Part shown: piece by piece, positions 5,974-56,433 of the stretch
How the letters are laid out: every line of letters begins with the position of its first letter
How positions within the stretch are numbered: the first letter of the stretch is position 1
From: Candidatus Woesearchaeota archaeon
Lineage (GTDB): Archaea; Nanobdellota; Nanobdellia; Woesearchaeales; JASKKU01
Direction of reading: 5' to 3'
DNA length: 64,000 nt
NCBI GenBank assembly: GCA_030154045.1
Contig: JASKKU010000002.1
Location: 7,663 to 71,662 of the forward strand
Notes under the pieces: generated by a model
The model's database searches: none
What the model was told of the DNA's origin: nothing
What the model saw: the letters and a program-made list of their open reading frames with translations, nothing else
Made by a program: the position numbers and the translations under genes

Positions 5974-6255
5974 TCAATCTAACCCCATTGTTTCCTTGAA
6001 AGACTTTACTTTTAGCAGACGGTCCAGAAACTCTCTGCCTTTATCTGTGATTATTATGTATTGGTGGTTGTTACGATTAACAAAATCAATGTAATCTTGG
6101 TTGATCAAATCCTCTAAGTATTGATTCATTAGTTTGTATGATAAGTTTGCTTTAGTCATTAATTGAGTTCGTTTTATCCTACCACTCCGATTTAATACAA
6201 TTAGCATTATATCATTAAGAATTTCTTCTCTAGTTCGTTTATGCTTAACTTTCAT
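5974..6255 (-). CDS. winged-helix transcriptional regulator (archaeal type)
   Basis: This 93 aa protein has a helix-turn-helix-like core (RTQLMTKANLSYKLMNQYLEDLINQDYI) and a wing (IIITDKGREFL). Confidence 0.4.
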   Translation of the reverse strand: MKVKHKRTREEILNDIMLIVLNRSGRIKRTQLMTKANLSYKLMNQYLEDLINQDYIDFVNRNNHQYIIITDKGREFLDRLLKVKSFKETMGLD

Positions 6256-6968
6256 TTTTTTGTTTTTTCCAAATTTTTAATCCTTGAACCAAATAAAGAG
6301 TTTGCAAATGCAAACATAAAAAATATGAAAGCTATTAATTCAAGCACCATTGCACTTACATAGAATCCTGAAGATAATATTAATAGGAGCAAATTACTCA
6401 TTGCTAAACAAACTAACGCAAGGAACATTGATTTTTGTCCAAGGGTTTTGAGCTTTGTTTTCTTAAGATAAAAATAACTGATTTCTCCAATTAATATGGC
6501 GCTTGTAAGATGAAATATCATTGGTTTGAGTGAAGATACATATGTCACAATCGTTATTAGGTAAACCAAGAGGAATACATGCTTTTTTTCCTCACTTCTG
6601 GTTATTAAGAAATAAAGACTAATTAATCCTAGGAGAAATAATATTCTTGTTACGAATTCTATTAAAAATAAAGACTGAATTATTGCAACACTTGTATATC
6701 TGATATAAACGCTTCCAACAGATATACTCTTTTCAACAGGAAAATACAGATTCAAATTTTTAAATACCTTCAAAAAATAGGATAATGCTATAAGTAAAAA
6801 CGAAATAAACAACCATTTCGTTTTTTTATCTGAAGTGATCTTGGTCGCTTTGTACGCAAATAATGCGATTAACAAAAAAACAATAACTCCAAAGTATTCA
6901 AATATGCAGTCAAATCCTCTAAACCATGGTGGCGAGAGTATCAGGGAGAACATCATTTTATATTTCAA
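6252..6968 (-). CDS. hypothetical polytopic membrane protein
   Basis: About six or seven hydrophobic helices are predicted. Its stop overlaps the upstream regulator gene. Confidence 0.35.
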   Translation of the reverse strand: MKYKMMFSLILSPPWFRGFDCIFEYFGVIVFLLIALFAYKATKITSDKKTKWLFISFLLIALSYFLKVFKNLNLYFPVEKSISVGSVYIRYTSVAIIQSLFLIEFVTRILFLLGLISLYFLITRSEEKKHVFLLVYLITIVTYVSSLKPMIFHLTSAILIGEISYFYLKKTKLKTLGQKSMFLALVCLAMSNLLLLILSSGFYVSAMVLELIAFIFFMFAFANSLFGSRIKNLEKTKK

Positions 6969-38878: not shown

Positions 38879-41800
38879 ATGGGGGGTTTTGGATTTTTTG
38901 GTAGAAAATCTTTGCCGGATTTGGATGAGGAAATTGACTTAGATAAACTGTCTTCTCCAAACGATTCAGAGTTGTTAAATGAACTTAAAAAAGAGTTGGA
39001 AGAATTAAAGAAACAGCAACCGGAAAAACAATCTGCAAAGAAAATAAAAACCTCCAACAAAATAAAAGATTTTAAATCAATCGTTGAGATTGAATATTTC
39101 CTTAAAGAGATTGATGATGCTTTCTTTAAACAAAACATGGATATAATTAAACAAAAGATTATAGAGTTTATAGATAAAGTCCTTCCAGAAACTGCATTAT
39201 CATTTGAAATTTCTTTATTGGGTGATAAAGGGAAGTTGCTCAATAAAATTCATGTTATCAGGGAAGTTTATGGCGACTTAACCTTGGGAAAAAGTAGAAC
39301 TTCAAAATCAGAAGCAAAACAAAAGAAAGAGGCTGTTGAAACAAATCCTAAAGATAATGAAGATAAAAAGCCATCTATTAAGTTTAAAACCGACGAAGAT
39401 GAGAACGCTGTTAATGGTGTAGAAGCTAAAGGTAACATCGATTTTGATAAGCAGGCTGAAGCAATTCACATCTTGCGATTAGTGGACCCAAAAGAAGCAA
39501 TTAAGCTTGATTCAAAGAATATTCGTTCATTAGAAGAATTGAAAAGTTTTATTGAAACATTGCCAGAAAAAAAGTTTAACCTGTTAGTCTTGCCTTTGAA
39601 TCGTAGAAAGAACATTGCCAATTGGATTGAACATGTCATAGGTTACCCTGAGCTTGCTGAGAAATTGATGCTGTGCGAAACTAGAGACGAAATCCATTCA
39701 GTTCTTGATGAAATGTATGAGAGAGTTAAAGACCTTGTTGTTTATGGAAAAATAAATTCCGAGGAAGAAAACGTGAATCTTTTGCCTGATTCTGATTCAA
39801 ACGAGTTAGAAAGTGATAAGCCATCTACAGAGAATACAAACAAGGATTCTGATTTAGACAAAGAATCTCAAAAGAATAACATGAATATTAAAACCCCAAT
39901 TTTAAAATCTGAAAGTAATGCTGAACTTGAAGATGAAAACTTCCAGGAAGTTTCAGAACTTGACCAACAAAACGAGAACAATTTGAGCAGGATCCTTGAG
40001 CAATTGCCTTTGCTTTCAGAGGAACAATTCAAACAGAAACGGCCAGAAATTTTTAATATTTTTTTAAAAAATAAAATATCAAAGAAAGAACTCTTATTAT
40101 TTGTGAAGTGCAAAACCAAAGATGAGTTTGCCCAAACTTTAGAAGAATTTTTGTATTCTAGACCTGAGTTTGAAAATTCTCTTAAAAAACTCACGAAAGA
40201 TGAGACTACTTCCCTAGAAAAAGAATTAAGTTCCATCCTTGCTCTTACACAAATCAAAGAAAGCATTTCAGATGAAGCGCCTATTGAAGAAACAAATCAG
40301 CCTGAAACACAACAAAAAACCAAAAAACGTTCCATCTTCAAATTTGGAACCGAAAAGAAAACTGATGCTGTTGCTTCTAATCAAAAATCTCCTAAATTAA
40401 ATCCTGAACCTCAACTTGATTCCCAACTTGTTCTGCAAGATGACCTAAGCAACATCAAAAGACAAACAACTTTAAATCAAAAAGTAGGCAATAAACAAAA
40501 TCCAAAATTAGAGAACGCTTTTAGTGGTTCAATTAAGAGTTATGATTCAAATACAGCTTCAAGATTGAAAGATGATGAAAACTTCTTTGATTATGTTTCT
40601 CAACTTAAACAAGAGCTTGAAGTAATGAAAGAAAAGAATCTCGATTTGAATGTTTTGCCTCCACCAACCCTTGATGATAAAGCACAGCCTTCACAATTTG
40701 AAAAGGGGTTGTTTGACCTGGTTAAACCAGAGGTCAATGAATCTTTGTTTGATGCAAAAGAACGTTCAGTTGAAAAAATTTCTCAACAAGATACCTTTAC
40801 AAAAACAAAAGACGAGCTTATTAATACTTTAATGAGTGACAAACCTGATACAAAACAGGCTTTTAAAGAACAGAACACACAACAGATAAAAGGTCTTGGT
40901 TTGGATAATATAGGATTTAATCATCAAGCTGAAGAAATTAAAGAGACAGTCAAAATTAATTCTTTGGAGGAATTCGAGAAACAACTTCTTGAGAAAGAAC
41001 GCGAGCTTCTAGAAAAGAAAATTGAACTTCTAAAACGGAAGAGAGAACTTGAGCGCGAGAACTTAAACAAACTTATGCAAAACATCGAGCTCCAAGACGC
41101 TCTTCTAAGCAAACTTTCAGAAGAGAGGCCTTCGATTGAAGATAACTTTGAAACAAAATCTCAAAATCAAGGTTTAAGCAATGAACAAAAGACTAAAACT
41201 TTAGCAGATAATAAGCTTAAAACTCAGTCTTTGTCTATACAAGAAGCACACCAAGGAGCTAAAGTTGTGAAACCAGAAAACTCAAACGAACTTTTCGAAG
41301 TGAAAAAAGCGATTGATGAAATACAAAAAACTGTTAGTGAAATAAACCGAAAATTAACTTCAACAGAAAAAGAGGATTTATTCAATCAAAGCAATGTTAC
41401 CATAAAAACATTTAAAGAAAGTGCTAGAGATACTACAAAAAATAATGAGCAAATCTTAAATAATGCTGATGAGTTTTCTCTTGATGATCTTATATCTCTT
41501 GTTGACAATTTTTTAGGCAGAGATTCTTTTGATGATGCTGAAAAAATTATCATGAAAGCAAGAAACTTAATTAAAAACAATCGAACTTTGAATTCAAAAA
41601 GAGAATCCAATAATAAAACTCTTGCAACAAAAACAACAACTCACCAATTTAAAACAGTAGAAGCATCTTCACAATCTTCCAAAAGTCAAAAGAGTTTAGA
41701 TGCTTTTAAGGTTGGTCAAGAATCTAAAACTCAAGAATCAAAAACAAAAGACAATTCGGAACTAAATTCCAAGACTGAAAATCTAGTACAAGAATCAAGC

Positions 41801-42037
41801 TCACCGAACTTTGATAATATAGAGTCTGTTTCAAAAATCCAAGAAGATGAAGGCCTGAAAGCGGTGTCTAAAATTAATAACCAAGATTTGGCTCAAAATG
41901 TAGATTCTCAAACTTTAAATAAAATCTTGCAAGAAATTGATTTGCACCTGTCTCAAAACAATTTAGATGAAGCAGATAAAATAATTAGAGAAGCAAGCAA
42001 GTTGATTAATGCGAAGGAATCTTTTGAAAGCCATTAA
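38879..42037 (+). CDS. large low-complexity coiled-coil protein (1052 aa), hypothetical
   Basis: It is K/E/Q/N-rich with long heptad-like stretches (KQLLEKERELLEKKIELLKRKRELEREN). No TM helix is seen. The terminal segments are similar (DDAEKIIMKARNLIKNN / DEADKIIREASKLINAK). Confidence 0.45.
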   Translation: MGGFGFFGRKSLPDLDEEIDLDKLSSPNDSELLNELKKELEELKKQQPEKQSAKKIKTSNKIKDFKSIVEIEYFLKEIDDAFFKQNMDIIKQKIIEFIDKVLPETALSFEISLLGDKGKLLNKIHVIREVYGDLTLGKSRTSKSEAKQKKEAVETNPKDNEDKKPSIKFKTDEDENAVNGVEAKGNIDFDKQAEAIHILRLVDPKEAIKLDSKNIRSLEELKSFIETLPEKKFNLLVLPLNRRKNIANWIEHVIGYPELAEKLMLCETRDEIHSVLDEMYERVKDLVVYGKINSEEENVNLLPDSDSNELESDKPSTENTNKDSDLDKESQKNNMNIKTPILKSESNAELEDENFQEVSELDQQNENNLSRILEQLPLLSEEQFKQKRPEIFNIFLKNKISKKELLLFVKCKTKDEFAQTLEEFLYSRPEFENSLKKLTKDETTSLEKELSSILALTQIKESISDEAPIEETNQPETQQKTKKRSIFKFGTEKKTDAVASNQKSPKLNPEPQLDSQLVLQDDLSNIKRQTTLNQKVGNKQNPKLENAFSGSIKSYDSNTASRLKDDENFFDYVSQLKQELEVMKEKNLDLNVLPPPTLDDKAQPSQFEKGLFDLVKPEVNESLFDAKERSVEKISQQDTFTKTKDELINTLMSDKPDTKQAFKEQNTQQIKGLGLDNIGFNHQAEEIKETVKINSLEEFEKQLLEKERELLEKKIELLKRKRELERENLNKLMQNIELQDALLSKLSEERPSIEDNFETKSQNQGLSNEQKTKTLADNKLKTQSLSIQEAHQGAKVVKPENSNELFEVKKAIDEIQKTVSEINRKLTSTEKEDLFNQSNVTIKTFKESARDTTKNNEQILNNADEFSLDDLISLVDNFLGRDSFDDAEKIIMKARNLIKNNRTLNSKRESNNKTLATKTTTHQFKTVEASSQSSKSQKSLDAFKVGQESKTQESKTKDNSELNSKTENLVQESSSPNFDNIESVSKIQEDEGLKAVSKINNQDLAQNVDSQTLNKILQEIDLHLSQNNLDEADKIIREASKLINAKESFESH

Positions 42038-42154
42038 AGATAAATAAATTAGGTGCTTTAAGTCTTAAATATCCTGTTTGACTTTTTTTGACAAGCTATT
42101 TAAGAAGAAATATTTAAAAAGAAGGCTTTACCTTTAAACCACTAGCTTTGGAGT

Positions 42155-45100
42155 TTGGGTCTGATTCAAATGAAACTTTTTGGAAATAAAAAAGTATTCT
42201 TATTCTTTTTGTTAATTTTTATAACACTGCTGTTTTTATTTACCATAATTTCTCAATCTAATTTTGCCGTGGCAGGCTGCTGTTTAAACCCTGATAGCGA
42301 TTACCTCTGCCAAGATGTAAGTGTATCAGATTGTTGTAGTAATGATTATTCCTGTCAACAGACCTATTCTGAGAGCAATTGTGATTCTCTTCCTGAATGT
42401 GAACCTGTTTGTTGTTGTCATTATGATGAAAATGGCGTTGAAAGCTCGGCGGTTGTTCTTAACATCAGTTGTGATGGAAACAAGTTTGCGCTTTCAGGAA
42501 AGTCTTGTTCAGACATTTGTAATGATAACAAACCTGTGCCTGTTAGTGACGATTGTAATTTAAGTACGAACCCGCTTTCAAAAATAAACGTTGATTTTGA
42601 CCTATCAGGATATCCTAGAAAAATACTTTTAAATTGGGAAGATCCCTGTTTTGGCGAAGTCCTTTATTATAATGTTTCTCGTATTGACCTTGAATCCCGG
42701 ACACAAGAGCATTTGGATAACGTTATGCAAACTTCATATACAGATACTACCTTTAATTTTTTAACCAAATATCAATATAACATTACCGCAGTATATTCTA
42801 CCAATAAAGTCTACACAATACTCTCTGATACAATAAATACAGGCAATATTGAATGCTGGATGGCTCCTCCAGGAGCGTTTTGTATAGATTTTCCGTATTA
42901 TCTAAAGTACACGGGTTATTTTGGATATGATAATCAAGAAGCTTTCTCAAATTTTTTACAACAGGAGGGTTATGCTGAGAATTATAATGCTGCGTATAGA
43001 TGCGAAGGTCGGGATCTGAAATTAATACAAGATTGTGGTCGCAGTGGAAAGTTTTGTGTAATAGGAAGTAGTGGCGAACCAATATGCTCTGAAGCTAAGG
43101 ATTGTTCTACATATAATTATGATTTAGGATTAAATCCTGATAAAGAAGACTGTGAAAACAATGCAGGCTGTTATTTTGACTCTGGTGAGGGCTTGGGCGG
43201 CTTATGCTTATCTTGTGATGCTAGTTATTTAGACAGAACTTGCTATTCGTATAGGTCTAAGGAAGCGTGTGAAAAAGATCTATGTAGTTTTGCAGTTTCT
43301 ACAGGTGGGTGCGAATGGGTCTCTTTAAATGATGAATTAGGTTTGGGTGTTTGTATAGATAAATCAAACATCAATTGCAAGGATTGTAATTTATATCTTA
43401 AGGACTTGCCTTATCAGACTTGTGAAGACCTCTATAAAGAGGATAGCAGATTTTCAGGGTGCGCAATTTGTGGAATAATTGATAGTTGCACGCAGTATAA
43501 TAATAGCAACTTATGTATAGGTGGCCAAGAAGCTCAAATTGATTTAACAACACACAAGATTATACCTAGTGCCGACTTCTGTGGTTTAGGTGTCTGCGAT
43601 TATTTTGAGACTGATTCGACATGTGCTAAAAATATTGATTTAGACCCTGATGAAAGGGATTGTAACAAAGGAGGTTCAAATGAGCGGGAGCAATGTGAAA
43701 AAGATATTTTTGTTCCACAAGTTAAGTTAAAACTAGATTTTGACAAAGATGATTTTGAATTAGGCAAGAATATAACATTTATTGTCTCTGATAGACGAGA
43801 ATCAGAGACAGTTAACTTCTTTAGTTCTGGAGAAGTTCTCAGTGATGGCTATGCTCTATATCTTTGTGTAGGCTCTGATTGTTTCACCAAAGACCATTTG
43901 AGTTGGAAATCTTTTGATAAAACTTCTGTTTCATCCTGTGATTTAATCTCAGCAGGGCTAAATGTTCATACTTCTAATCCTCAGACACTATACTATTTTG
44001 TTAAAGACCCTTCAGGCAATGTTGCTGAAGTTCAATCTTTGAATATTGTAATAAATGCAACAAGAGTTTGTAAACCAGGAGATACTAGACCTTGCCCAAA
44101 ACAGCAAGGTGTATGTAATGGTGCTATCCAGCATTGTAATCTTGTTTGTCCCGCAGAGAATATTGGTTTTTATTCAAGGGATTGTTCTTTTGAGGAATAC
44201 TCAGATAATACCAATGGTCCGTACGAAGCTTTTGAAACAACTGTAGACGGTTTAGATAACGACTGTGACGGCTTGATTGATGAAGGTGCTAAGAAAGAAG
44301 TATTGTGTAATGGTATTGATGATAATGGTGATGGTCGAGTTGATGAAGGCTATCCTGATTTTGACGGGGACAACAACCCTGAAATTTGTGATTACAATAA
44401 TTTTGATGTTAGTAAAGATAGTGAGGGTCACATAATACACCATCCAAAAATAAAACAAGGAATTAACTTGACAAAATATGGTTATAGATACAATGCAAAA
44501 TATTGTGGCGCTGATTGTGTTGATTTAGATGCTGATAATGATGCAATTGTTGATTCTACTTCCACAGGCGAACCTATTGATAAAGAGAACACTACAAAAG
44601 TTGGCTGTATAGTTATCACTTCAGGTCCTTTTAAAGGGGTTGCAAAGGATTCAGACCAAGATGGTATTTGTGATGGTCTTGATAACTGCGTTAATGTAAA
44701 CCCTGATTGTGCAGTTGAAGGTTACAATTCTCCAAACAAGGACCTTATAGGATGCCCTGTAGATTGTAAAAGCGAGAGCTGTCTTGGAGAACCATACTGC
44801 CAAGAACAATGCAATTGTGATTCCTGTGCTGATTTTTATGGTATGTCCTCTTGTGATTATGCACACTGCACTTTGGGTTGTGGATGTTATTTTCAAACAG
44901 CAACCACTACATGTATGGATTGCTCTTTTGTGACTTCATGTGAAAAATACAATGATGCGCAAAGTTGCAGGAGCAATTCGTGTCATTTGTTGTCCAAATG
45001 TGAATGGAGTGATAGTATAGGTTGTTATACTGATAATGATAATGATGGGATTCCAGATGATAAAGACCCTTGTCCTTTTGATTCGCAAAATGACGCTGAT

Positions 45101-48100
45101 GGCGATGGTTTTTGCTGGAAGGAATCGAATTCTAATCTAGTTGGGAAGACTGTAGATGTTAATGGTAGAACTTTTGTCTTAAAAGGAGGGTTTGATTGCG
45201 ATGACAATAATGATGAAATTTATCCTAGAACAGACTTTGTTGAAGGTAACGAGTCTTTGTGCGATTTTAAGGATAATGATTGTGATGGCTTAATTGATGA
45301 AGGTTGTCCTTGTGTTAAAGGAGACTTTAGGTCTTGTGGTAATCCGTTTTTAGACTATTCGGAGTTCTCGAAATGTAATCGAGGTATACAATATTGTATT
45401 GATGGGGTTTGGTCTGATAATTGTTCGGGGTTTAAAGGTCCAGAAATTGATAACGAGGCTGAACAAAATTTTAAGAGTACTAAGTATTGTGATGGTTTTG
45501 ATAATGACTGCAATGGTCTTATAGATGATAAATGCCCTTGCTTGCCTGATGAGACGATTCCTTGCGGTACTGATTTGGGCGTATGCAGTTTTGGTTATAG
45601 AAAATGCGGCGATGACTTGAGGTTTGAAGACAAATGTGTTTATACAAACGATTCCCAAAAACCTCAAAAGGAAATCTGTGGTAATTATCTAGATGATGAT
45701 TGTGATGGTTCCATAGATGAAGGTTGTCCATGTGTCGAAGGTCAAACAATGTCTTGTCCTGATTCAACTTCTTTAGTTTTTTCAAACTCTCAGAATGCTT
45801 ATACATCTGTTTTTAACTCGGCATGCAGACAAGGCGTACAAAAATGTATCTCAGGAGTTTGGACTACCTGTGACGGTTTTGTAGGCCCTCAAGTGATGGT
45901 AGAAGACCCTTCAACAAATCCTCAACTGTGCGATTCTAAGGATAATAATTGTGATGGCTTAATTGATGAAGGTTGTAGCTGTTATTCTAATCAGAGCTGT
46001 GCAACCAATTGCGGTTGGGGAACTCAGGAGTGTGAAGCCGGGATTTATTCAGATGAATGTATTGGCGCAAGAGTTCCTTCTGCTGAAAAGTTAGATAATG
46101 TAGATAATGATTGTGATGGTTTGATTGATGAAGGTTTCCCTGAAAAATACTGCGATGGCAGAGATGATGATGGTGACGGTTGGGTTGATGACGGCTGCCC
46201 TGATTTTGATGGGGATAATGACCCAAGGATTTGTGACTTTTCAAATCCTCTACAAGATAAAGAAGGGAAGATTCACTTTAAGACAAAAGACAAGAAGTAT
46301 TACTGTGGCGCAGATGCAATCGATTTAGATAAAGATAATGATGGAGTGTTAGATGATTCAGACAGAGACCCTTCAACTCCTTTAGGATGTGAAGTTAATC
46401 GGGATAATGGGATTGCCATAGACACTGATGGAGACGGTATCTGTGATGGCCTTGATAAATGCCAGGAAAGTTTGCCAGGTTGCCCTGTTTATGGCTATGA
46501 CTCTTCAGATAAGGATGTTATAGGTTGTCCTAAGGACTGCGCAAATTCTAAGTGTATAACTTCAAGTTATTGTAAGTGTCCATCGTGTGATGTTTGTGAG
46601 GAATCTTTCTTAATGCCACAGGGTTGCCAGCCGTTGCAATGCTCTTACTGTGCTATGGGACAGTGCGCAATTTCTGAGGTTGGTGAGTCTGAACAATGTA
46701 CTTCTTGTACAAACATAAAAAGTTGCGAAGGTTATATTACTGAAGAAGATTGTAATCGCAATCCTTGTTTAACAAATGTTTCTTGCGTGTGGAATGGTAC
46801 AAACTGCTTGCTAGATACTGATGGGGATGGTTTAGCAGATAATATTGATCCTTGTCCGCAGGATAAATTGAACGATAACGATGGTGATGGTTATTGTGCA
46901 CACCAAGCAAACGATGACTTTGTAAAAAGAGGGGAATTGTTTGGAGGAAACGATTGCAATGATAATGATGCTAGTATTCACATAGGCTGTGGTTGTATTG
47001 TTGATAAAGACAATGATGGGTATGGTCAAGGTTGCTTATGGGGCCAAGATTGTGATGATACTGATCCAGAAAAAAATACACATTGTGACAACGGTTGTAT
47101 TGAAGATATGGACGGTGATGGCTTTGGTAGAGGTTGCTCAGCAGGCCCTGATTGTGATGACTCTAATGCTACGATAACTAATCAATGTGATCCCAGTGTG
47201 TTTTGTTCAAATGGTTACTTAGATAATGATGAGAGTGATATAGATTGTGGTGGAATTTGCGAGCCTTGTGATGCGGGTAAAAAATGTAAAACTGATTCAG
47301 ATTGTAAATCAAATATTTGTAACCGCGGTTTATGTTATGATGAAGAATTATGCACCAATGGAATAAAAGACGATTTTGAATCGGATGTGGATTGTGGTGG
47401 ACCTTGTAATCTTTGCCAGAATGGACAGAGCTGTATTAGTGATTTAGATTGTAAATCAAACAATTGCGTTAATGGAGTATGTTCAATACCTACTTGCGAT
47501 GATAACAAGAGAAACCAGGATGAAACTGACGTAGATTGTGGAGGGCATATCTGTAAACCTTGCGATATTGGAAAGCATTGCAAAGCAAACAGCGATTGCA
47601 TCTCATCAAAATGCGATCAAGATACTCAAAAATGTATCCCTTCAAAAGAAACTTCGGTAACAAAAAAAGATTCAGATGGAGATGGAATGCCTGATTATTG
47701 GGAATTAAAATATGGTTTGAATCCAAATGATGGCTCTGATGCTGATTTAGATTTAGACAAAGATGGTTTGTTTAATTATAAGGAATACATTCTAAACCTA
47801 GATCCAACAAATCCAGATACTGATGGCGACGGAATTAAAGACGGAAAAGAAGTTGATAAAGGTCTAGACCCAAGAGTTCCAGATAAAAGAGGACCTCTCG
47901 GATTGATTATTTCACTAATAATCTTATTGACTGGTGGCGGCTTAGGTTATGTATATCGGGATAAATTATGGTTCTGGCTTAATAAGTACGGTATTACAGA
48001 TTTTGTCTATAAAGCTCTTAAAAAATCAGGAATTTTAGACTTTGTTTATCTAAAATTGCTCAAAAAGACACCGCCAACGCTTGAAGCAATAAAGAAAGTA

Positions 48101-48328
48101 AAGACTCCAAAAACAACACAAAATATAAACATTAACGAAAAACAAAAAGTGATTAAATCTAAACCTGCTCAAGTAAAACCTGCTCCGATTCAGCCGAAAA
48201 AGCCAAAAGTCTCTGAAAAACTTGAAAAGAAAATTAAAGAAAAGTCCAAGATATTTGACGCTTTTGAAACAGAAGATACTGAAAAAAATAAAAAAGATGA
48301 GGATCTGTTTAAGGAGTTTGAAAAATGA
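42155..48328 (+). CDS. giant cysteine-rich cell-surface protein (2057 aa): signal peptide, MopE-like DNDCDGLIDEG repeats, thrombospondin-type-3-like Ca-binding repeats, C-terminal TM anchor
   Basis: An N-terminal signal/TM sequence (VFLFFLLIFITLLFLF) is followed by a Cys-dense ectodomain. The ectodomain has six DNDCDGLIDEG motifs, D-x-D-x-DG-x-C-D-G-L-D-x-C repeats (DQDGICDGLDNCVNVNPDC), and DSDGDGMPDYWELKYGLNPND..DTDGDGIKDG. A TM helix (LGLIISLIILLTGGGLGYVY) and a K/P-rich tail follow. Confidence 0.7.
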   Translation: MGLIQMKLFGNKKVFLFFLLIFITLLFLFTIISQSNFAVAGCCLNPDSDYLCQDVSVSDCCSNDYSCQQTYSESNCDSLPECEPVCCCHYDENGVESSAVVLNISCDGNKFALSGKSCSDICNDNKPVPVSDDCNLSTNPLSKINVDFDLSGYPRKILLNWEDPCFGEVLYYNVSRIDLESRTQEHLDNVMQTSYTDTTFNFLTKYQYNITAVYSTNKVYTILSDTINTGNIECWMAPPGAFCIDFPYYLKYTGYFGYDNQEAFSNFLQQEGYAENYNAAYRCEGRDLKLIQDCGRSGKFCVIGSSGEPICSEAKDCSTYNYDLGLNPDKEDCENNAGCYFDSGEGLGGLCLSCDASYLDRTCYSYRSKEACEKDLCSFAVSTGGCEWVSLNDELGLGVCIDKSNINCKDCNLYLKDLPYQTCEDLYKEDSRFSGCAICGIIDSCTQYNNSNLCIGGQEAQIDLTTHKIIPSADFCGLGVCDYFETDSTCAKNIDLDPDERDCNKGGSNEREQCEKDIFVPQVKLKLDFDKDDFELGKNITFIVSDRRESETVNFFSSGEVLSDGYALYLCVGSDCFTKDHLSWKSFDKTSVSSCDLISAGLNVHTSNPQTLYYFVKDPSGNVAEVQSLNIVINATRVCKPGDTRPCPKQQGVCNGAIQHCNLVCPAENIGFYSRDCSFEEYSDNTNGPYEAFETTVDGLDNDCDGLIDEGAKKEVLCNGIDDNGDGRVDEGYPDFDGDNNPEICDYNNFDVSKDSEGHIIHHPKIKQGINLTKYGYRYNAKYCGADCVDLDADNDAIVDSTSTGEPIDKENTTKVGCIVITSGPFKGVAKDSDQDGICDGLDNCVNVNPDCAVEGYNSPNKDLIGCPVDCKSESCLGEPYCQEQCNCDSCADFYGMSSCDYAHCTLGCGCYFQTATTTCMDCSFVTSCEKYNDAQSCRSNSCHLLSKCEWSDSIGCYTDNDNDGIPDDKDPCPFDSQNDADGDGFCWKESNSNLVGKTVDVNGRTFVLKGGFDCDDNNDEIYPRTDFVEGNESLCDFKDNDCDGLIDEGCPCVKGDFRSCGNPFLDYSEFSKCNRGIQYCIDGVWSDNCSGFKGPEIDNEAEQNFKSTKYCDGFDNDCNGLIDDKCPCLPDETIPCGTDLGVCSFGYRKCGDDLRFEDKCVYTNDSQKPQKEICGNYLDDDCDGSIDEGCPCVEGQTMSCPDSTSLVFSNSQNAYTSVFNSACRQGVQKCISGVWTTCDGFVGPQVMVEDPSTNPQLCDSKDNNCDGLIDEGCSCYSNQSCATNCGWGTQECEAGIYSDECIGARVPSAEKLDNVDNDCDGLIDEGFPEKYCDGRDDDGDGWVDDGCPDFDGDNDPRICDFSNPLQDKEGKIHFKTKDKKYYCGADAIDLDKDNDGVLDDSDRDPSTPLGCEVNRDNGIAIDTDGDGICDGLDKCQESLPGCPVYGYDSSDKDVIGCPKDCANSKCITSSYCKCPSCDVCEESFLMPQGCQPLQCSYCAMGQCAISEVGESEQCTSCTNIKSCEGYITEEDCNRNPCLTNVSCVWNGTNCLLDTDGDGLADNIDPCPQDKLNDNDGDGYCAHQANDDFVKRGELFGGNDCNDNDASIHIGCGCIVDKDNDGYGQGCLWGQDCDDTDPEKNTHCDNGCIEDMDGDGFGRGCSAGPDCDDSNATITNQCDPSVFCSNGYLDNDESDIDCGGICEPCDAGKKCKTDSDCKSNICNRGLCYDEELCTNGIKDDFESDVDCGGPCNLCQNGQSCISDLDCKSNNCVNGVCSIPTCDDNKRNQDETDVDCGGHICKPCDIGKHCKANSDCISSKCDQDTQKCIPSKETSVTKKDSDGDGMPDYWELKYGLNPNDGSDADLDLDKDGLFNYKEYILNLDPTNPDTDGDGIKDGKEVDKGLDPRVPDKRGPLGLIISLIILLTGGGLGYVYRDKLWFWLNKYGITDFVYKALKKSGILDFVYLKLLKKTPPTLEAIKKVKTPKTTQNININEKQKVIKSKPAQVKPAPIQPKKPKVSEKLEKKIKEKSKIFDAFETEDTEKNKKDEDLFKEFEK
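44305..45115 (+). repeat. internal duplication copy A within the giant surface-protein gene
   Basis: Protein segment CNGIDDNGDGRVDEGYPDFDGDNNPEICDY...DADGDGFC is collinear with segment CDGRDDDGDGWVDDGCPDFDGDNDPRICDF...DNDGDGYC of copy B. Confidence 0.6.
46151..46898 (+). repeat. internal duplication copy B within the giant surface-protein gene
   Basis: See copy A. Shared blocks are YCGADxxDLDxDND, DxDGICDGLDxC, GYxSxxKDxIGCPxDC and DxDPCPxD. Confidence 0.6.
47204..47640 (+). repeat. three tandem ~45-aa Cys-rich repeats (D-x-D-C-G-G-x-C-x-x-C ... S-D-C-x-S-x-x-C)
   Basis: The three units are CSNGYLDNDESDIDCGGICEPCDAGKKCKTDSDCKSNICNRGLC, CTNGIKDDFESDVDCGGPCNLCQNGQSCISDLDCKSNNCVNGVC and CDDNKRNQDETDVDCGGHICKPCDIGKHCKANSDCISSKCDQDTQKC. 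Confidence 0.65.
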
Positions 48329-48780
48329 AAAAGGCAGCAATACAACTAAGTTTTGGATTAGTTCTTACAATACTTATTATCGTTGCAATCTTTTTTGTTG
48401 CACTGAAAGGTATTTCAGTATTGATGTCTAATGTATCTCAAATGCAAAAAGACCAATTTGTTTCTGATCTCACAAGTTTTTACAAGCAAACCCTGAGACT
48501 GCCTTCAGGTTCATCCATTCCAGTTAAAATCAGTTCAAAATTTGATACACTTTGCTTTTATAATAAAAATGGTGATGGTTCTTTAAATAATCTGGCGCCT
48601 TATGAAGATGTTCTCACTATAGAAACAAAAAACGTCTTTGGAATATATCGTGGCAAACTTATTCCATTAACCTCTTTTTCTTTAGCAACTCCAAAAAAAG
48701 AGGTTTGTTTTAATAGAACTACCTCAGGCCTGTTTAATTTCACAATGATTTCAAAAGGCGATAGTATAGACATAAAATGA
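48325..48780 (+). CDS. small secreted/membrane protein with a class III (type IV pilin-like) signal-peptide-like N-terminus
   Basis: The N-terminus is MKKAAIQLSFGLVLTILIIVAIFFVA: a short basic tip, a QLSF motif, then a hydrophobic helix. The start overlaps the stop of the giant gene (ATGA). Confidence 0.4.
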   Translation: MKKAAIQLSFGLVLTILIIVAIFFVALKGISVLMSNVSQMQKDQFVSDLTSFYKQTLRLPSGSSIPVKISSKFDTLCFYNKNGDGSLNNLAPYEDVLTIETKNVFGIYRGKLIPLTSFSLATPKKEVCFNRTTSGLFNFTMISKGDSIDIK

Positions 48781-49811
48781 AATTGTTTAAGAAATCTGCA
48801 TTACAAATCTCATTTAATCTTATTGTATCCATACTTATTGCAATTGTAGTGTTTATTGTAATCTTTAAGACAAGCCAAGTCTTTTTAGATTATGCTCATA
48901 AAAAAGGTTCTTTTGATGCGTTTACTTATCTTGAATTGAATTTAAAGAATCTTTATAGCGAATCCGATTATGTAAAAGCAATAGAATTAGATAAACCAAC
49001 ACAGATCTCAGTTATTTATCCAAACATAGTTATCCCAAGGATTGAAAAAACAATTGATATCAATAATAAACTCATAATTGCACCTGCAAATATGTTCACA
49101 TCATCATTAACTTTGTTCAGCAAGAAATCTGAGTTTCCAATAGATTCCATAAATTATTTGTTTATCTTTCCTAAGGACAAATACTTGTTGCTTTACAATT
49201 CTTCAGATAAGCTAACAGAGATTGTAAACTCAGAGTTGCCTGATAAAATAACCAATTTAGAAAAAAAAGATGAATATTTAATTCATAAATTCATAGTTGA
49301 TAAACCTCTTGAGATTTCCCAGATTTGTGGTAAAAAGGATTACTGCCTCGTGATTGTATTTAACTCCCCTTCAACTTATGATGATTTATTAAATATATTT
49401 AAAGACTATAGGACCCTTGAAATTCTACACGTTTCAGGCAATGAAACTTTTGGTAAAGTAACTTTGGCTTCAGGCCAGAATGTAAGTTACTTCGATAGAT
49501 ATACTTTACTTTCTGCAATAATCAGTAATAATTTTGAGAACTATAATGAATTTATTAAGACTTTAGATAAATATGTTAACTTGACTTTTTTAGTAGAATC
49601 TAAAAGGTTGTCTTATCTGTTTGATTTACAGCCTACTGAATTATGTAAAAATTTAACTCAAGATTTAAACAATACTTTATTTAATATAACAAGACTTATG
49701 AATTCTTTAAGTAATGATATTAACGATAATATTTTTTCAGAACTTCACGGAAATCATTCAAAAGTTTTAGAAATAAATTATAAGCTAAAAGAAAATGATT
49801 GCTACGAATAA
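48777..49811 (+). CDS. pilin-like/N-terminally anchored protein (344 aa)
   Basis: The N-terminus is MKLFKKSALQISFNLIVSILIAIVVFIVIF, the same KK-[AS]A-[IL]Q-[LI]SF pattern as the preceding gene. An ATGA overlap is present. Confidence 0.4.
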   Translation: MKLFKKSALQISFNLIVSILIAIVVFIVIFKTSQVFLDYAHKKGSFDAFTYLELNLKNLYSESDYVKAIELDKPTQISVIYPNIVIPRIEKTIDINNKLIIAPANMFTSSLTLFSKKSEFPIDSINYLFIFPKDKYLLLYNSSDKLTEIVNSELPDKITNLEKKDEYLIHKFIVDKPLEISQICGKKDYCLVIVFNSPSTYDDLLNIFKDYRTLEILHVSGNETFGKVTLASGQNVSYFDRYTLLSAIISNNFENYNEFIKTLDKYVNLTFLVESKRLSYLFDLQPTELCKNLTQDLNNTLFNITRLMNSLSNDINDNIFSELHGNHSKVLEINYKLKENDCYE

Positions 49812-50283
49812 AAGCCAAATAAAAAGCATACAAACATTTTTTTTGGTATTCTTTTTTATAATTATACTTGTAATTATTTTGTTAATTGTTTTTCAGAATA
49901 TTTACTCTTCTAATTTAAAATCGTCCAATGACCTTTTGTCAAAGATGGCTTTACAGAAAGCAATCGCAATTACAAAATTCCCTTTGTTTGTAAATCAAGA
50001 AAATGAGTTTTTTGATATCTATCGAGTTAAAGCTTATCTTGATTTAAAAGAATCTCATCCAGAGCTTGAGTCTTGGTTGGAAGCAAATTTTGGAGACAGC
50101 ATTGTTGAGCTTGTATTGTTAGATGACAGCTTAGACCCTAGAGAAGAATTTTTGATATACAATCACACACCTGTTAATTTTAAAAAGGATGTTGCGTTGA
50201 AATTTCAATTGCCTATTTTAGTATATAATTCGACTCTAAGAAAATCAACTTTAGGTTTGCTTAATATCACGCTTTTTGAGTGA
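49795..50283 (+). CDS. small N-terminally anchored protein (162 aa), possible minor pilin-like
   Basis: The N-terminus is MIATNKSQIKSIQTFFLVFFFIIILVIILLIVF. It overlaps the previous gene by 17 nt. Confidence 0.3.
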   Translation: MIATNKSQIKSIQTFFLVFFFIIILVIILLIVFQNIYSSNLKSSNDLLSKMALQKAIAITKFPLFVNQENEFFDIYRVKAYLDLKESHPELESWLEANFGDSIVELVLLDDSLDPREEFLIYNHTPVNFKKDVALKFQLPILVYNSTLRKSTLGLLNITLFE

Positions 50284-50770
50284 GCATATGCAAAAGAAAG
50301 CGCAATCAGAAATTTTAGGTATTGTGTTTATGATAGTTATAGCTTTAGTTTTAATATTGATCCTTTTATTTTATGGTAATAGACCAACCTTTGATGAGCA
50401 AGGGAATTTAATAATTATAGCCAATCGTTATTATAATACGATATTTTCAGATAATCTTTATACAAACTGTAGCCAAGATATGTCCTTTTTAACACTTTTG
50501 AGATATTATTTTATGGGATTAGTAACAGAATGTGATGATGGCTCTAATGTAGAATCGTTCTTAAACAATTATATAAACAAAACCCTAAGATATTTTTTGG
50601 CGAACAACGGCTTGGCATACAAACTAATCATTTCTGATTCTCACAACAGTTTAAGTTTTGAGAATGGAGTTTGCAACGGTTTTGTTTATTACCTCCCAAC
50701 CCAAACAATACTTAAACCTGACTCAGGCCGCATTAACATTTCTCTTAGCGTTTGTAAGAGAAAAAGATAA
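50276..50770 (+). CDS. small N-terminally anchored protein (164 aa), possible pilin-like
   Basis: The N-terminus is MSEHMQKKAQSEILGIVFMIVIALVLILILLFY. KKAQ|SEIL resembles a prepilin peptidase site. An 8-nt overlap is present. Confidence 0.35.
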   Translation: MSEHMQKKAQSEILGIVFMIVIALVLILILLFYGNRPTFDEQGNLIIIANRYYNTIFSDNLYTNCSQDMSFLTLLRYYFMGLVTECDDGSNVESFLNNYINKTLRYFLANNGLAYKLIISDSHNSLSFENGVCNGFVYYLPTQTILKPDSGRINISLSVCKRKR

Positions 50771-50780
50771 TTAAAAAATT

Positions 50781-51155
50781 TTAGATGTTTTTCAATAATG
50801 ATTCAATTTTTCTGATTTGTGCATCTATGGTTGATAACTCATCATTCCTGATTTCTGTGCTCTCCATCTTTTTATCTGTTTGTCGTTTTTCTGCTTTTGT
50901 TGTTCTAGATAGTGTTATCTTTGATTTAGGCAATAATTCTATAATTGATTTGCCGAGCGAATCAATCGATTTTAGATCATTCTCCAACTTTTTTAAAGCT
51001 TCAATCCTTGATTTGTTTTTGATTTTCTGAACCTGAAGGTCCTTCATTAAAATTAATAGCTCTTTTGCACTTGTCAATAAACTCTTCCTTAGTTCTTTTG
51101 ATTCATAAAGGCCTACATACGTTATTTCTTTGGTTTCAGGCTTATTCTTTGCCAT
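50781..51155 (-). CDS. hypothetical coiled-coil protein (124 aa)
   Basis: The sequence is predominantly heptad-like. It is the third gene of a tightly coupled minus-strand triplet. Confidence 0.3.
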   Translation of the reverse strand: MAKNKPETKEITYVGLYESKELRKSLLTSAKELLILMKDLQVQKIKNKSRIEALKKLENDLKSIDSLGKSIIELLPKSKITLSRTTKAEKRQTDKKMESTEIRNDELSTIDAQIRKIESLLKNI

Positions 51156-51157
51156 CT

Positions 51158-51391
51158 TTACTCCTCATTAGATTGAACTTTAGAGTCTATTGTCTGGACT
51201 AGGTTCTTTAGCTTAGTTAATTGTGATTCGAATGACTCTATCCTTTTCTTTTCCTCTTCGTTTGCTTGTTTGAGTTCTTTGATCAGCCTCTCAGCCAATT
51301 CAACTTTCTCTTTTAGTTCATCAACATTAGCTCTTAATTTCTTGAATTCATCAATCTTCAAAAAAACAGGAAGATTATCCATTATTTTCAC
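51158..51391 (-). CDS. hypothetical small coiled-coil protein (77 aa)
   Basis: It contains KLRANVDELKEKVELAERLIKELKQANEEEKKRIESFESQL. There is a 2-nt gap to the next gene. Confidence 0.3.
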   Translation of the reverse strand: MKIMDNLPVFLKIDEFKKLRANVDELKEKVELAERLIKELKQANEEEKKRIESFESQLTKLKNLVQTIDSKVQSNEE

Positions 51392-52013
51392 CTCGAATTA
51401 TGGCATCACAAGTTATGCTTTTATTAAACATGAAATTTGCATTCTTAGCCAGTTCTTCAACATTGGCTTTGTTTTGTGAAACTAATGACTTGATCTCTTC
51501 ACTATATGTCTTTAAGTATTGATTTATCTCTAGTATTTTGTTAATTTGTTCAGAAAGCCATTGTAAATCCGTTTCTTTTATGAAATGACTGTTCTCTTTT
51601 TGGGAATAAAGTATTATTGAATCACTTGAAATTGTCTTATCTATCTGACTAAGTGGCTTGTTTTCTACTGTTTCATTTTTTGTTTCTTTTAATAAACCAG
51701 AAAAAGGTTCGCTTTCTTGCTCTTTTGTATCTTGTGCTTCAAAACCACTCATAAGCTTGGATTCTAACTCTTTCAGTTCGTTCTCAATGTCTAAATTATT
51801 TGATACTTTAACATTTTCTTGCAAATTGGTATCAGATTTTTCTTGTGAATCTGTTTGTAAATCTTTTTTATCCTCAGAACTCAGCAATTTTTGAGATGAG
51901 CTCTCTTCTTTCTTTTGTTGAGTGCTCTCTAAGCCTTCAGGTTGTGGTGGAGTAGGTGGCTTATCTTCTTTTGATTCTTCTTTCTTTTTCTTCGGTTTGA
52001 ATAAAAAAGCCAT
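51375..52013 (-). CDS. hypothetical acidic protein (212 aa) with a low-complexity N-terminus
   Basis: The N-terminal half is E/K/S/Q-rich. It overlaps the downstream gene by 17 nt. Confidence 0.3.
   Translation of the reverse strand: MAFLFKPKKKKEESKEDKPPTPPQPEGLESTQQKKEESSSQKLLSSEDKKDLQTDSQEKSDTNLQENVKVSNNLDIENELKELESKLMSGFEAQDTKEQESEPFSGLLKETKNETVENKPLSQIDKTISSDSIILYSQKENSHFIKETDLQWLSEQINKILEINQYLKTYSEEIKSLVSQNKANVEELAKNANFMFNKSITCDAIIRGENNG

Positions 52014-54494: not shown

Positions 54495-56433
<1,939 letters not shown>

Follow-up and report, generated by a model that had tools for sequence, protein, structure and literature searches.

In bacteria, four co-transcribed minor pilins or pseudopilins form a priming or tip complex, as in the fimU-pilVWXY1E operon of Pseudomonas and in GspH-I-J-K of type II secretion. 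In Methanococcus, four minor pilins are essential, the major pilin has 74 aa and the pilin loci are unlinked from the assembly machinery; pilins of the EppA type carry leaders of 5-13 aa, Gln at +1 and a conserved Glu at +5 (PMC3875500). This archaeal TFF 'system 1' (Methanococcus maripaludis Epd type) has been reported in DPANN archaea (preprint 10.64898/2026.04.22.720090). In archaea, loci for type IV pili frequently combine minor pilins with a large Cys-containing protein that is anchored by a C-terminal transmembrane (TM) helix (PMC4858521), and large adhesin-like or S-layer-like proteins beside several pilins have been described for such loci (PMC4858521; PMC6393860; preprint 10.64898/2026.04.22.720090). 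Finally, in Figure 2A of Makarova, Wolf and Koonin 2019 (PMC6393860), 'dark matter' islands of DPANN genomes are runs of unannotated genes with signal peptides that are read as diverse pilins.

The locus analyzed here belongs among these archaeal loci of type IV pilins and a large surface protein. The original prediction had presented it as a candidate novel surface module, a claim that was overstated because neighborhoods combining a large protein with pilins had already been described. We interpret the locus, with a probability of about 0.65, as the five core genes of a larger cluster, conserved across Woesearchaeota, that encodes a surface structure of the pilin type (type IV filament). Such a structure would probably serve attachment.

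The five genes were found where the original prediction had placed them, tightly packed on the forward (+) strand of the window, i.e. the whole 64-kb stretch of DNA that was analyzed; all coordinates below refer to that strand. The gene for the giant protein appears as 42155-48328 in the list of open reading frames. Gene callers in independent assemblies start it at ATG 42170, which corrects its product from 2057 aa (from TTG 42155) to 2052 aa. Four genes for pilin-like proteins follow: p2 (48325..48780, 151 aa), p3 (48777..49811, 344 aa), p4 (49795..50283, 162 aa) and p5 (50288..50770). The same gene callers start p5 at ATG 50288, giving 160 aa; an alternative TTG start at 50276 gives 164 aa. 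The giant/p2 and p2/p3 junctions are ATGA overlaps, and p3 and p4 overlap by 17 nt. Between p4 and p5 there is an 8-nt overlap with the TTG start of p5 and a 4-nt gap with its ATG start. The overlap claimed for every junction thus holds for the first three, and for the fourth with the TTG start only. In the sequence, the intergenic region ahead of the giant gene (42038..42169) has TTTAAA boxes at 42113 and 42133, and a GGAG stands 13 nt upstream of ATG 42170; this region likely serves as promoter and 5' leader of the operon. The source is an AT-rich archaeon, as had been proposed, and is labeled Woesearchaeota in the source records, and an archaeal RNase P was found with this DNA.

The giant gene and its four followers do form a conserved module, as had been proposed, which recurs in distant genomes with different flanks. 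Among the loci compared, the p3 family was found in 83, the giant in 72, p5 in 69, p4 in 68 and p2 in 60. Family HMMs built without the window matched p3 (E 1.4e-36), p4 (6.5e-23), p5 (7.6e-22) and p2 (3.5e-18). The identical five-gene order occurs in three loci (L003, L005 and L006), the last with flanks unlike those of the window, and a relative at ~52% protein identity also keeps it. Across most of 80 loci the recurring order is ~400 aa, giant, ~160, ~340, ~160, ~160 and ~92 aa. An exhaustive profile search returned 19 representatives of the p3 family, and a search of species-representative genomes with a narrower p3 alignment gave at least 146 matching stretches. In most relatives the core lies within a cluster on one strand that comprises up to 18 genes, most of which have N-termini of the pilin type. 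This cluster includes a ~92-aa protein (fam5; 88 copies in 53 loci, often in tandem), which is a candidate major pilin. Family HMMs detected neither fam5 nor any other additional family of the cluster in the window, which is a reduced core of the larger cluster.

The N-termini of p2 to p5 consist of a Lys-rich leader of 5-8 aa, a Gly, Ala or Ser, usually a Gln, and then one hydrophobic helix. These N-termini were compared with a relaxed class III-like criterion (a short positive leader ending in Gly, Ala or Ser, directly before a single hydrophobic N-terminal stretch of ~20-25 residues). Applied to the 62 ORFs of 70 aa or more in the window, it selected four, all adjacent, and these are exactly p2 to p5, so the pattern is far beyond chance. 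In the related loci, the same criterion selected 59% of the ORFs on the cluster strand vs 1.8% on the opposite strand. With an arrow for the predicted cleavage site, p2 begins MKKA↓AIQLSF and contains one N-terminal TM helix and 2 Cys. The start of p3, MKLFKKS↓ALQISFN, marks it as a divergent member of a family with the consensus K(K/R)G↓x(I/V)E(I/V)QFNWIF, in which Cys290 and Cys342 are invariant. The protein p5 begins MQKKA↓QSEILGIV and has 4 conserved Cys. The original prediction had noted pilin-like N-termini in three of the small proteins, which are as quoted there; that of p4, MIATNKSQIKSIQTFF... (MIATNKS↓QIKSIQTFF), also fits the pattern, making four.

Family members share these features. 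The class III-like pattern was present in 79 of 83 members for p3, 61 of 69 for p5, 62 of 68 for p4 and 45 of 60 for p2, with median leader lengths of 5-8 aa. Residue +1 is Gln in 60 of 61 scored p5 members, 61 of 62 for p4 and 38 of 45 for p2; in the window itself it is Gln in p4 and p5, and Ala in p2 and p3. The p5 family has Glu at +3 (98%) and Gly at +6 (95%), the p4 family Glu at +6 (95%). At -1, Ala or Ser frequently takes the place of Gly. Moreover, at least 15 unrelated families have a K-K-[G/A/S]-Q site whose distance to the helix is fixed. Under the relaxed criterion, the N-termini of the four small proteins thus look like the expected class III signals. They are largely missed by a strict FlaFind-type pattern (an approximate version), which matched 0-7 members per family and only p2 in the window, mainly because of the frequent Ser at -1 and the polar residues downstream of the site.

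Beyond the N-terminus, the families resemble neither each other nor described pilins. Alignment by hhalign between small-protein families gave E values of 1e-5 to 1e-6 over ~30 residues, with the N-terminus alone shared; this includes p2 against fam5 (E 1.5e-6). Pfam and NCBIfam scans of p2 to p5 and of eight co-located families returned nothing significant. Pilin_N (PF07790), Class_IIIsignal (PF04021) and Flp1_like (PF16982) had no significant match to p2-p5. When every fam5 and p5 member was scanned, only weak matches driven by the TM helix were obtained: Pilin_N matched 1 of 63 p5 members (E 0.027) and Class_IIIsignal never appeared. The p5 family comprises 149 clusters; no Pfam domain occurs in any of them, and those with a source name are all called 'hypothetical protein'. 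When profiles of fam5, p5 and p4 were run against PDB sequences, no match was significant, the best being 8rey, "Flagellin-like protein", at E 0.85.

After the helix, the small-protein families bear a globular head with conserved cysteines, and AlphaFold models were obtained for two of them. The p3 model (20 aligned sequences, pLDDT 88.8) predicts a helix at residues 3-60 (58 residues) followed by a beta-rich domain and a helical bundle. In the p5 model (109 aligned sequences, pLDDT 84.9), helix 10-29, a kink and helix 36-54 precede an alpha/beta head whose 4-stranded sheet packs against the helix. Compared with solved structures, the modeled p5 head resembles a Cache/PAS sensor domain. Neither the p3 nor the p5 head resembled any solved pilin or archaellin. 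The models show the long N-terminal helices and globular heads of the proposed fold, with heads that match no solved pilin. As a working analogy, the set also recalls FimU-PilVWX and GspHIJK, with four small proteins, one of them much larger (p3 at 344 aa, cf. GspK), and a large Ca-binding surface protein, but no similarity of sequence or fold to p2-p5 was found.

Assembly genes were sought around the cluster. In 80 loci, the 10 kb around the cluster were screened for polytopic membrane proteins and for Walker A proteins with 250 aa or more, and this revealed no prepilin peptidase, secretion ATPase or FlaJ/TadC platform. The screen returned a single protein whose N-terminus is ABC-like and, in two loci, a presenilin-type protease. 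The same three types were absent from the 64-kb window and from the 10 kb beyond its right end, where only housekeeping genes are found. Walker A and polytopic proteins of the window with a Pfam family are an ABC transporter, RadA, ParA/MinD, IF2, LspA and an EMC3/YidC-like insertase. Four further polytopic proteins have no significant family match, and the two of these that are sized like archaeal prepilin peptidases show no GxGD-type motif in a membrane context. The check for a prepilin peptidase suggested in the original prediction thus came out negative for the window and for the 10 kb around the 80 loci. The cluster resembles the 'dark matter' pilin islands in its runs of unannotated genes with signal peptides. 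These islands, as presented with Figure 2A of PMC6393860, are recognized by adjacent genes for a type IV pilus ATPase ('FliI' in the paper's text), TadC and surface proteins, whereas the cluster has no such marker within 10 kb.

The lack of an ATPase, platform or peptidase near the cluster in the 80 loci and in the window would also be expected if p2-p5 were uncleaved single-pass (type II, signal-anchor) proteins, forming a membrane complex that folds, anchors or regulates the giant with no pilus involved. The absence of any match to a Pfam pilin model, the heads unlike those of solved pilins, the frequent Ser at -1 and the Cache/PAS-like head of p5, a domain normally carried on a membrane-anchored helix, all suit this explanation. 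However, a plain anchor needs no K-K-[G/A/S]-Q site conserved across at least 15 unrelated families, and the near-invariant Glu within the helix (98% in p5, 95% in p4) would be superfluous. The ~92-aa tandem-duplicated proteins with the same N-terminus look like major pilins, and pilin loci apart from their machinery are well documented (PMC3875500, PMC4858521). We therefore consider that uncleaved anchors are unlikely.

A close parallel for pilins encoded in this way is the Epd/EppA system of Methanococcus maripaludis. The two have in common the short leader, Gln at +1 (here in the p2, p4 and p5 families), a Glu early in the helix, four minor pilins (putative here), a small major pilin (74 aa vs ~92 aa for the candidate fam5) and pilin loci unlinked from the machinery. 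They differ in that no sequence or Pfam relationship between them is detectable, in that residue -1 of the cluster is often Ala or Ser and not Gly, and in the position of the Glu, at +3 (p5) or +6 (p4) and not +5. Moreover, the Woesearchaeota cluster has no dedicated peptidase, ATPase or platform gene, and its operon is headed by a giant membrane-anchored protein.

The giant (42170..48328) is a type I membrane protein of 2052 aa. The hydrophobic signal peptide, Cys-rich ectodomain, TM anchor and Lys/Pro-rich tail of the original description were all seen, with only the length corrected. The signal peptide is of the Sec type and no class III signal is present; Cys and Asp account for 8.7% and 12.8% of residues. 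An N-terminal ectodomain module (aa ~150-640, 42617..44089) is conserved, aligning with ~33 distant loci, and has no match in Pfam. It is followed by a lineage-specific insert of ~1000 aa (aa ~650-1650, 44117..47119), with which 0-1 distant locus aligns over nearly all of its length. A conserved membrane-proximal module (aa ~1670-1906, 47177..47887) aligns with 29-62 distant loci over most of its length. It holds three Cys-rich [E/D][S/T]D[I/V]DCGG repeats, found in 52 of 64 giants, and two bacterial TSP3-like Ca-binding repeats. Finally, hydropathy analysis placed a single C-terminal TM helix at aa 1907-1930 (2052-aa numbering; 47888..47959), before a conserved cytoplasmic tail (aa 1931-2052, 47960..48325) of 122 aa with 25% Lys/Arg that aligns with 26-41 distant loci. 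A C-terminal TM helix with a basic cytoplasmic tail of 95-258 aa was found in the giants of 62 of 64 loci, and the tail sequence itself is conserved. The middle region turns over between lineages, and orthologue lengths range from ~630 to ~3150 aa, the shortest values being truncated by contig ends.

The combination of MopE and TSP3-like motifs in the ectodomain had been stressed as its hallmark. The Pfam scan confirmed MopE (PF11617; E 1e-13, 51.7 bits against a gathering cutoff of 27, 7 stretches), whose repeats are putative metal-binding motifs. TSP3_bac (PF18884) stayed below its cutoff (22.4 bits against 25, 2 stretches, the best at aa 1839-1859 in 2057-aa numbering), yet the giant has 12 DxDxDGxxD motifs and precomputed PF18884 matches exist on two orthologues (P0012 and P0014). 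The insert accounts for every MopE-type CDGxIDE repeat and for most DxDxDGxxD motifs of the giant. It contains two paralogous modules of ~400 aa (aa 651-1046 and 1268-1622; 39% identical, internal duplication E 6e-87), with shorter MopE repeats between them. Among 64 giants compared, the MopE pattern was restricted to the window and L003. The giant thus shares motifs with PF11617 proteins and, below the cutoff, repeats with PF18884, but these do not define its family. MopE plus TSP3 was rejected as the defining feature of the system, since the motifs are confined to, or concentrated in, an insert that distant relatives lack.

With its signal peptide, large ectodomain, single C-terminal TM helix and conserved cysteines, the giant has, at the level of architecture only, the make-up of the 'S-layer-like' large proteins associated with archaeal type IV pili (Makarova et al., PMC4858521). 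The arCOG05471-type loci of Thermoproteales (Makarova et al. 2016, PMC4858521) likewise place a C-terminally anchored large protein with conserved cysteines beside several small class III-signal proteins, in which cysteines are conserved too. However, they normally include ATPase and TadC genes, which the Woesearchaeota cluster does not; the families are unrelated in sequence, and the giant has a long conserved cytoplasmic tail and a lineage-specific MopE/Ca-binding insert. The giant might accordingly be mainly an S-layer or envelope protein, adjacent to pilin genes only through joint expression of surface components. We find this improbable: its range of lengths and the turnover of its middle fit an interaction protein better than a lattice-forming one, and the ATGA overlap with p2 and the fixed gene order in most of 80 loci suggest a closer functional tie to the pilins.

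A role as pilus-tip adhesin, favored in the original prediction, is unlikely because the giant ends in a TM helix followed by a conserved cytoplasmic tail (62 of 64 loci) and lacks any PilY-like domain. In its most explicit form, with four minor pilins bearing the giant as FimU-PilVWX bear PilY1 in Pseudomonas, we judge it very improbable. A large protein of the Ca-binding type is indeed co-transcribed with exactly four pilin-like genes, and PilY-like adhesins have been proposed at some archaeal pilus loci (PMC4858521; preprint 10.64898/2026.04.22.720090). But PilY1 is soluble, without a membrane anchor, whereas here the helix and basic tail tie a type I protein to its own membrane. The giant carries a Sec-type signal peptide rather than a class III signal, Pfam gave no match to PilY, PilY-like or DUF2341 domains, and no PDB sequence of a solved structure matched.

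Misassembly into a chimera, contamination or recent transfer of foreign DNA, a concern raised in the original prediction and echoed by the GC content (35-39% across the giant gene vs roughly 27-38% elsewhere in the window), is effectively refuted, since the locus has the same neighbors in several independent sequencing runs and two NCBI MAGs, the ~52%-identity relative has the same gene order, and the third-codon GC of the giant (0.25) is in line with that of the adjacent upstream gene (0.26) and p2-p5 (0.29), so that codons for Cys, Gly and Asp explain the higher GC.

For a type IV filament cluster, the following scheme can be proposed, in which cleavage, assembly and the physical link between the giant and p2-p5 are what we infer. 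The four small proteins would insert in the membrane with the N-terminus in the cytoplasm and be cleaved after K-K-[G/A/S] by a class III (prepilin) signal peptidase. A secretion ATPase and a platform protein, presumably encoded elsewhere in the genome, would extract them from the membrane. As p2-p5 appear to be translationally coupled, they would be made in similar amounts and could form a four-part minor-pilin complex that primes or caps a filament or a short pseudopilus; its nearest analogues are the four minor pilins that Methanococcus needs and the bacterial FimU-PilVWX and GspHIJK sets. Sec would export the giant, whose C-terminal helix would keep it in the membrane of the producing cell, with the basic tail facing the cytoplasm. 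Its conserved N-terminal and membrane-proximal modules may serve a shared function, as partner of the pilin complex or as part of the envelope, while the fast-changing middle of the ectodomain (here the duplicated MopE and Ca-binding insert) may tune binding to a host or surface.

A bolder extension of this scheme is doubtful, and is put forward tentatively. The cluster would encode an undescribed Woesearchaeota-wide organelle that is the main device for host recognition and attachment. This would be a composite filament or pseudopilus of up to ~15 pilin-like subunits, in which the p2-p5 core is coupled physically to the giant, and the tail of the giant links the structure to the cell interior. 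In it, p5 might use its Cache/PAS-like head, carried on a pilin scaffold, to sense a ligand.

Two features of the locus do not fit current models, namely the conserved cytoplasmic tail of the giant and the position of the cluster apart from assembly machinery. To our knowledge, no member of the Woesearchaeota is in culture. Here, a stretch of "hypothetical proteins", whose families are matched by no Pfam or NCBIfam model, becomes a defined cluster recurring in many genomes, with an anchored giant, a four-member pilin-like core, extended families and a candidate major pilin. Thus, the cluster is a source of targets for structural and surface work, and of annotation markers for the surface structures of DPANN archaea.

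ORF calling in the window returned the five reading frames of the original prediction at the coordinates it had given, with two starts revised after gene callers in independent assemblies. The giant protein, a large membrane-anchored surface protein, starts at ATG 42170 rather than 42155 (42170..48328, +; 2052 aa instead of 2057), and a GGAG motif lies 13 nt before this codon. The last of the four downstream genes, p5, starts at ATG 50288 (50288..50770, +; 160 aa). The junctions of the giant with p2 (48325..48780, +) and of p2 with p3 (48777..49811, +) are ATGA overlaps, and p3 overlaps p4 (49795..50283, +) by 17 nt. Overlaps had been announced at every junction; this holds for these three, but at p4/p5 an 8-nt overlap exists only with a TTG start, the ATG start leaving a 4-nt gap.

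The N-termini of p2-p5 were aligned with their orthologues from three other genomes. A shared pattern was conserved: after a very short leader rich in Lys come a small residue, usually a Gln, and about 25 hydrophobic residues; truncated gene calls masked it in two orthologues. An exhaustive profile search with p3 recovered 19 representatives; their lengths range over 161-384 aa, and almost all fall within 334-384 aa. Their consensus, K(K/R)G before and x(I/V)E(I/V)QFNWIF after the predicted cleavage site, reads as a textbook prepilin-type signal. The p3 of the window is a divergent member, with Ser where the family has Gly.

N-termini were then scored as class III-like, i.e. a short Lys-rich leader and a small residue followed by one hydrophobic helix. 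In the fetched loci, 79 of 83 p3 family members were class III-like, with Gly (43), Ala (31) or Ser (5) at -1; Gln occupied +1 in a minority and Phe was commonest. The p5 family scored 61/69 (Gln +1 in 60/61, Glu +3 in 98%, Gly +6 in 95%) and the p4 family 62/68 (Gln +1 in 61/62, Glu +6 in 95%). The p2 family scored 45/60, with Gln +1 in 38 of the 45 and no other conserved position noted. Median leader lengths of the four families were 5-8 aa. As a control, the same criterion was applied to all window ORFs with a length of 70 aa or more (n = 62) and selected four, which were the adjacent genes p2-p5; across loci it selected 59% of cluster-strand ORFs vs 1.8% of opposite-strand ORFs. All four N-termini thus bear out the proposal that the small downstream genes are pilin-like, an assignment that we regard as very likely.

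Few members of these families match a strict FlaFind-type pattern; Ser is frequent at -1, and Glu is found at +3 or +6, not +5. The signal closely resembles that of the EppA-type pilins of Methanococcus maripaludis, which have 5-13-aa leaders, Gln +1 and a conserved Glu +5 (PMC3875500). The position of the conserved Glu differs, being +3 in p5 and +6 in p4 as opposed to +5 in the Methanococcus proteins.

Family HMMs built without the window recovered p3, p5, p4 and p2 at E-values of 1e-36 to 4e-18. Between families, similarity is limited to the N-terminal ~30 residues (hhalign E-values of 1e-5 to 1e-6), as is usual among pilin paralogues. AlphaFold models of p3 and p5 were confident. In that of p3 (pLDDT 88.8), the N-terminal helix spans 58 residues, and the rest consists of a beta-rich domain and a helical bundle at the C-terminus. 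In that of p5 (pLDDT 84.9), a kinked N-terminal helix packs on an alpha/beta head with a four-stranded sheet. The window p4 is free of cysteine, though its family has two Cys positions that hardly vary. No protein of these families gave a significant match to Pfam or NCBIfam pilin models. Judged from sequence, p2-p5 are predicted to work like type IV pilins by N-terminal design, while falling outside every described pilin family.

Scanning species-representative genomes gave at least 146 matching stretches, of which 80 loci were fetched for comparison. Gene order around p3 was consistent on one strand: ~400 aa, the giant (1000-3100 aa), ~160, ~340, ~160, ~160, ~92, ~92 aa and onward. Clustering of neighbourhood proteins across loci placed the p3 family in 83 loci, the giant in 72, p5 in 69, p4 in 68 and p2 in 60. 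A family of ~92 aa (fam5) was found in 53 loci as 88 copies, often in tandem; it has conserved cysteines and an N-terminus with K(R/K)(G/A/S) before and QSISINTIIVAAIALIVL after the predicted cleavage site. Fam5 is the obvious major-pilin candidate. The cluster includes about 15 further families, and in most of them the majority of members are class III-like. A complete example (L012) comprises 18 co-directional genes over ~18 kb. The five-gene core stands alone in the window and in two other loci, L003 and L005, and a family HMM search found none of the other cluster families in the 64-kb window. The window therefore carries just the core of a larger cluster.

Record titles of the matching stretches were mostly Woesearchaeota or GTDB-style Nanoarchaeota, with many generic automated MAG labels. 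Many cluster-bearing automated MAG records (L014, L015, L017, L018, L064, L085 and many others) bear titles such as 'uncultured Methanosarcinales archaeon', 'Dehalococcoidales bacterium', 'Aminicenantes bacterium' or 'Binatia bacterium', which probably reflects wrong labels or wrong binning of the contigs.

The gene immediately upstream of the giant gene (38879-42037, +) encodes a low-complexity, Lys/Glu/Ser-rich protein of 1052 aa, which lacks a TM helix and matched nothing in Pfam; the protein at the equivalent position in L005 looks different. Convergent with the operon are three small, coiled-coil-looking proteins (50781-52013, -), of which at least the first two also adjoin the module in L003 and L005. 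Further on, a second conserved surface protein of 619 aa (52196-54055, +) combines a lamin-tail domain (PF00932, E 4.8e-10) with a signal peptide and a TM helix at the C-terminus. By eye, N-x-S/T sequons are very abundant in it, and it is syntenic in L003.

Assembly machinery was sought around the cluster. Within 10 kb of p3, none of the 80 loci showed a secretion-ATPase-like Walker A protein or a platform-like polytopic family. A presenilin/signal-peptide-peptidase-type aspartyl protease stood beside the cluster in two loci only, L079 and L080 (13791-14753, -, in both; PF06550, E 9e-12, scanned for L080, with a near-identical 320-aa protein in L079). Pfam-matched Walker A or polytopic proteins of the window were limited to an ABC transporter, RadA, ParA/MinD, IF2, LspA and an EMC3/YidC-like insertase, and four polytopic window proteins had no significant family match. 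Two of these four have the size of archaeal prepilin peptidases but lack a GxGD-type motif in membrane context. A protein with six TM helices (2646-3395, -) matched nothing significantly in Pfam or NCBIfam, and for one with five (6252-6968, -) the sole hit was DUF7521, below threshold (24.1 bits, cutoff 27); neither has a prepilin-peptidase-like GxGD motif in membrane context. To the right of the window, the next 10 kb hold housekeeping genes. This absence of nearby machinery fits stand-alone archaeal pilin loci (PMC4858521, PMC3875500). In M. maripaludis, pilin loci are unlinked from the machinery, four minor pilins are essential and the major pilin has 74 aa (PMC3875500).

The giant carries a signal peptide of hydrophobic type and consists of Cys to 8.7% and of Asp to 12.8%; its single TM helix (aa 1907-1930) is followed by a 122-aa Lys-rich tail. 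The predicted MopE domain was recovered (PF11617, E 1e-13, seven stretches), and TSP3_bac scored just below its cutoff (22.4 vs 25 bits). Large upstream proteins were compared across 64 loci. A C-terminal TM helix with a tail of 95-258 aa was present in 62/64, and Lys/Arg made up 19-37% of the tail in all but one (13%). The Cys repeat [E/D][S/T]D[I/V]DCGG occurred in 52 of the 64 and DxDxDGxxD motifs in 56, while the MopE pattern was restricted to the window and its closest relative. Mapped on the window giant, conservation appears as a mosaic: an N-terminal module (aa ~150-640) aligns in ~33 distant loci and a C-terminal module including the cytoplasmic tail (aa ~1670-2050) in 26-62 loci, with an insert between them (aa ~650-1650) that aligns in almost no distant locus. 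This insert is internally duplicated (aa 651-1046 vs 1268-1622, 39% identical, E 6e-87). Because the MopE-type insert is confined to one lineage, the MopE/TSP3 combination, stressed in the original prediction, is better seen as a recent decoration.

The giant had also been proposed as a pilus-tip adhesin. This PilY1-like reading is opposed by the TM anchor and tail conserved in 62/64 proteins; since both are conserved, the giant most likely remains in the cell's own membrane, and we consider an anchored rather than tip-borne protein likely. It fits the 'S-layer-like' large C-terminally anchored proteins of archaeal type IV pilus loci described by Makarova et al. (PMC4858521). The tail (47960-48325, +) carries the motif YRDKLWFWLNKYG adjoining the membrane. 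The basic tail, with this motif, is conserved in dozens of distant loci, which implies that it has a partner in the cytoplasm.

A chimera or contaminant was rejected: proteins identical to p3 are on record from several Logan assemblies and from two NCBI MAGs that carry the label Candidatus Woesearchaeota, and third-codon GC of the giant (0.25) is in line with that of its upstream neighbour (0.26) and of p2-p5 (0.29). Therefore, the elevated GC across the giant gene is explained by its Cys, Gly and Asp codons and not by a foreign origin. The window also contains an archaeal RNase P RNA. Two bacterial-type features were seen: a lipoprotein signal peptidase II, LspA (1160-1639, -; PF01252, E 2.3e-27), which hints at bacterial-style lipoprotein processing in this archaeon, and a GroEL/GroES pair (54495-56433, -; PF00118, PF00166) whose position is kept in L003.

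Altogether, the operon is tightly packed and its order conserved; p2-p5 have prepilin-type N-termini, long N-terminal helices and heads with conserved cysteines, and the type I topology of the giant is conserved. We propose, with a probability of about 0.65 for the mechanism overall, that a class III signal peptidase would cleave p2-p5 after K-K-[G/A/S], and that their assembly would then fall to an ATPase and a platform whose genes lie elsewhere in the genome. The resulting four-part minor-pilin complex may prime or cap a filament or short pseudopilus, the filament being built by fam5 where present. The giant would act as a membrane-anchored adhesin or envelope partner, its variable middle tuning binding.

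Combinations of several pilins with large S-layer-like or adhesin-like proteins are established for archaeal TFF loci (PMC4858521; preprint 10.64898/2026.04.22.720090), and DPANN "dark matter" pilin islands were already noted (PMC6393860). The preprint does not mention Woesearchaeota, and full-text searches turned up no earlier account of the Woesearchaeal cluster or of its families. Four things are new: protein families that match nothing in Pfam or NCBIfam, a conserved five-gene core in which a giant is joined to four pilin-like genes, a pilin-like cluster apart from assembly machinery, and the conserved cytoplasmic tail of the giant. In kind, the cluster is no surprise, but it is of use to DPANN cell biology and can be put to the test.
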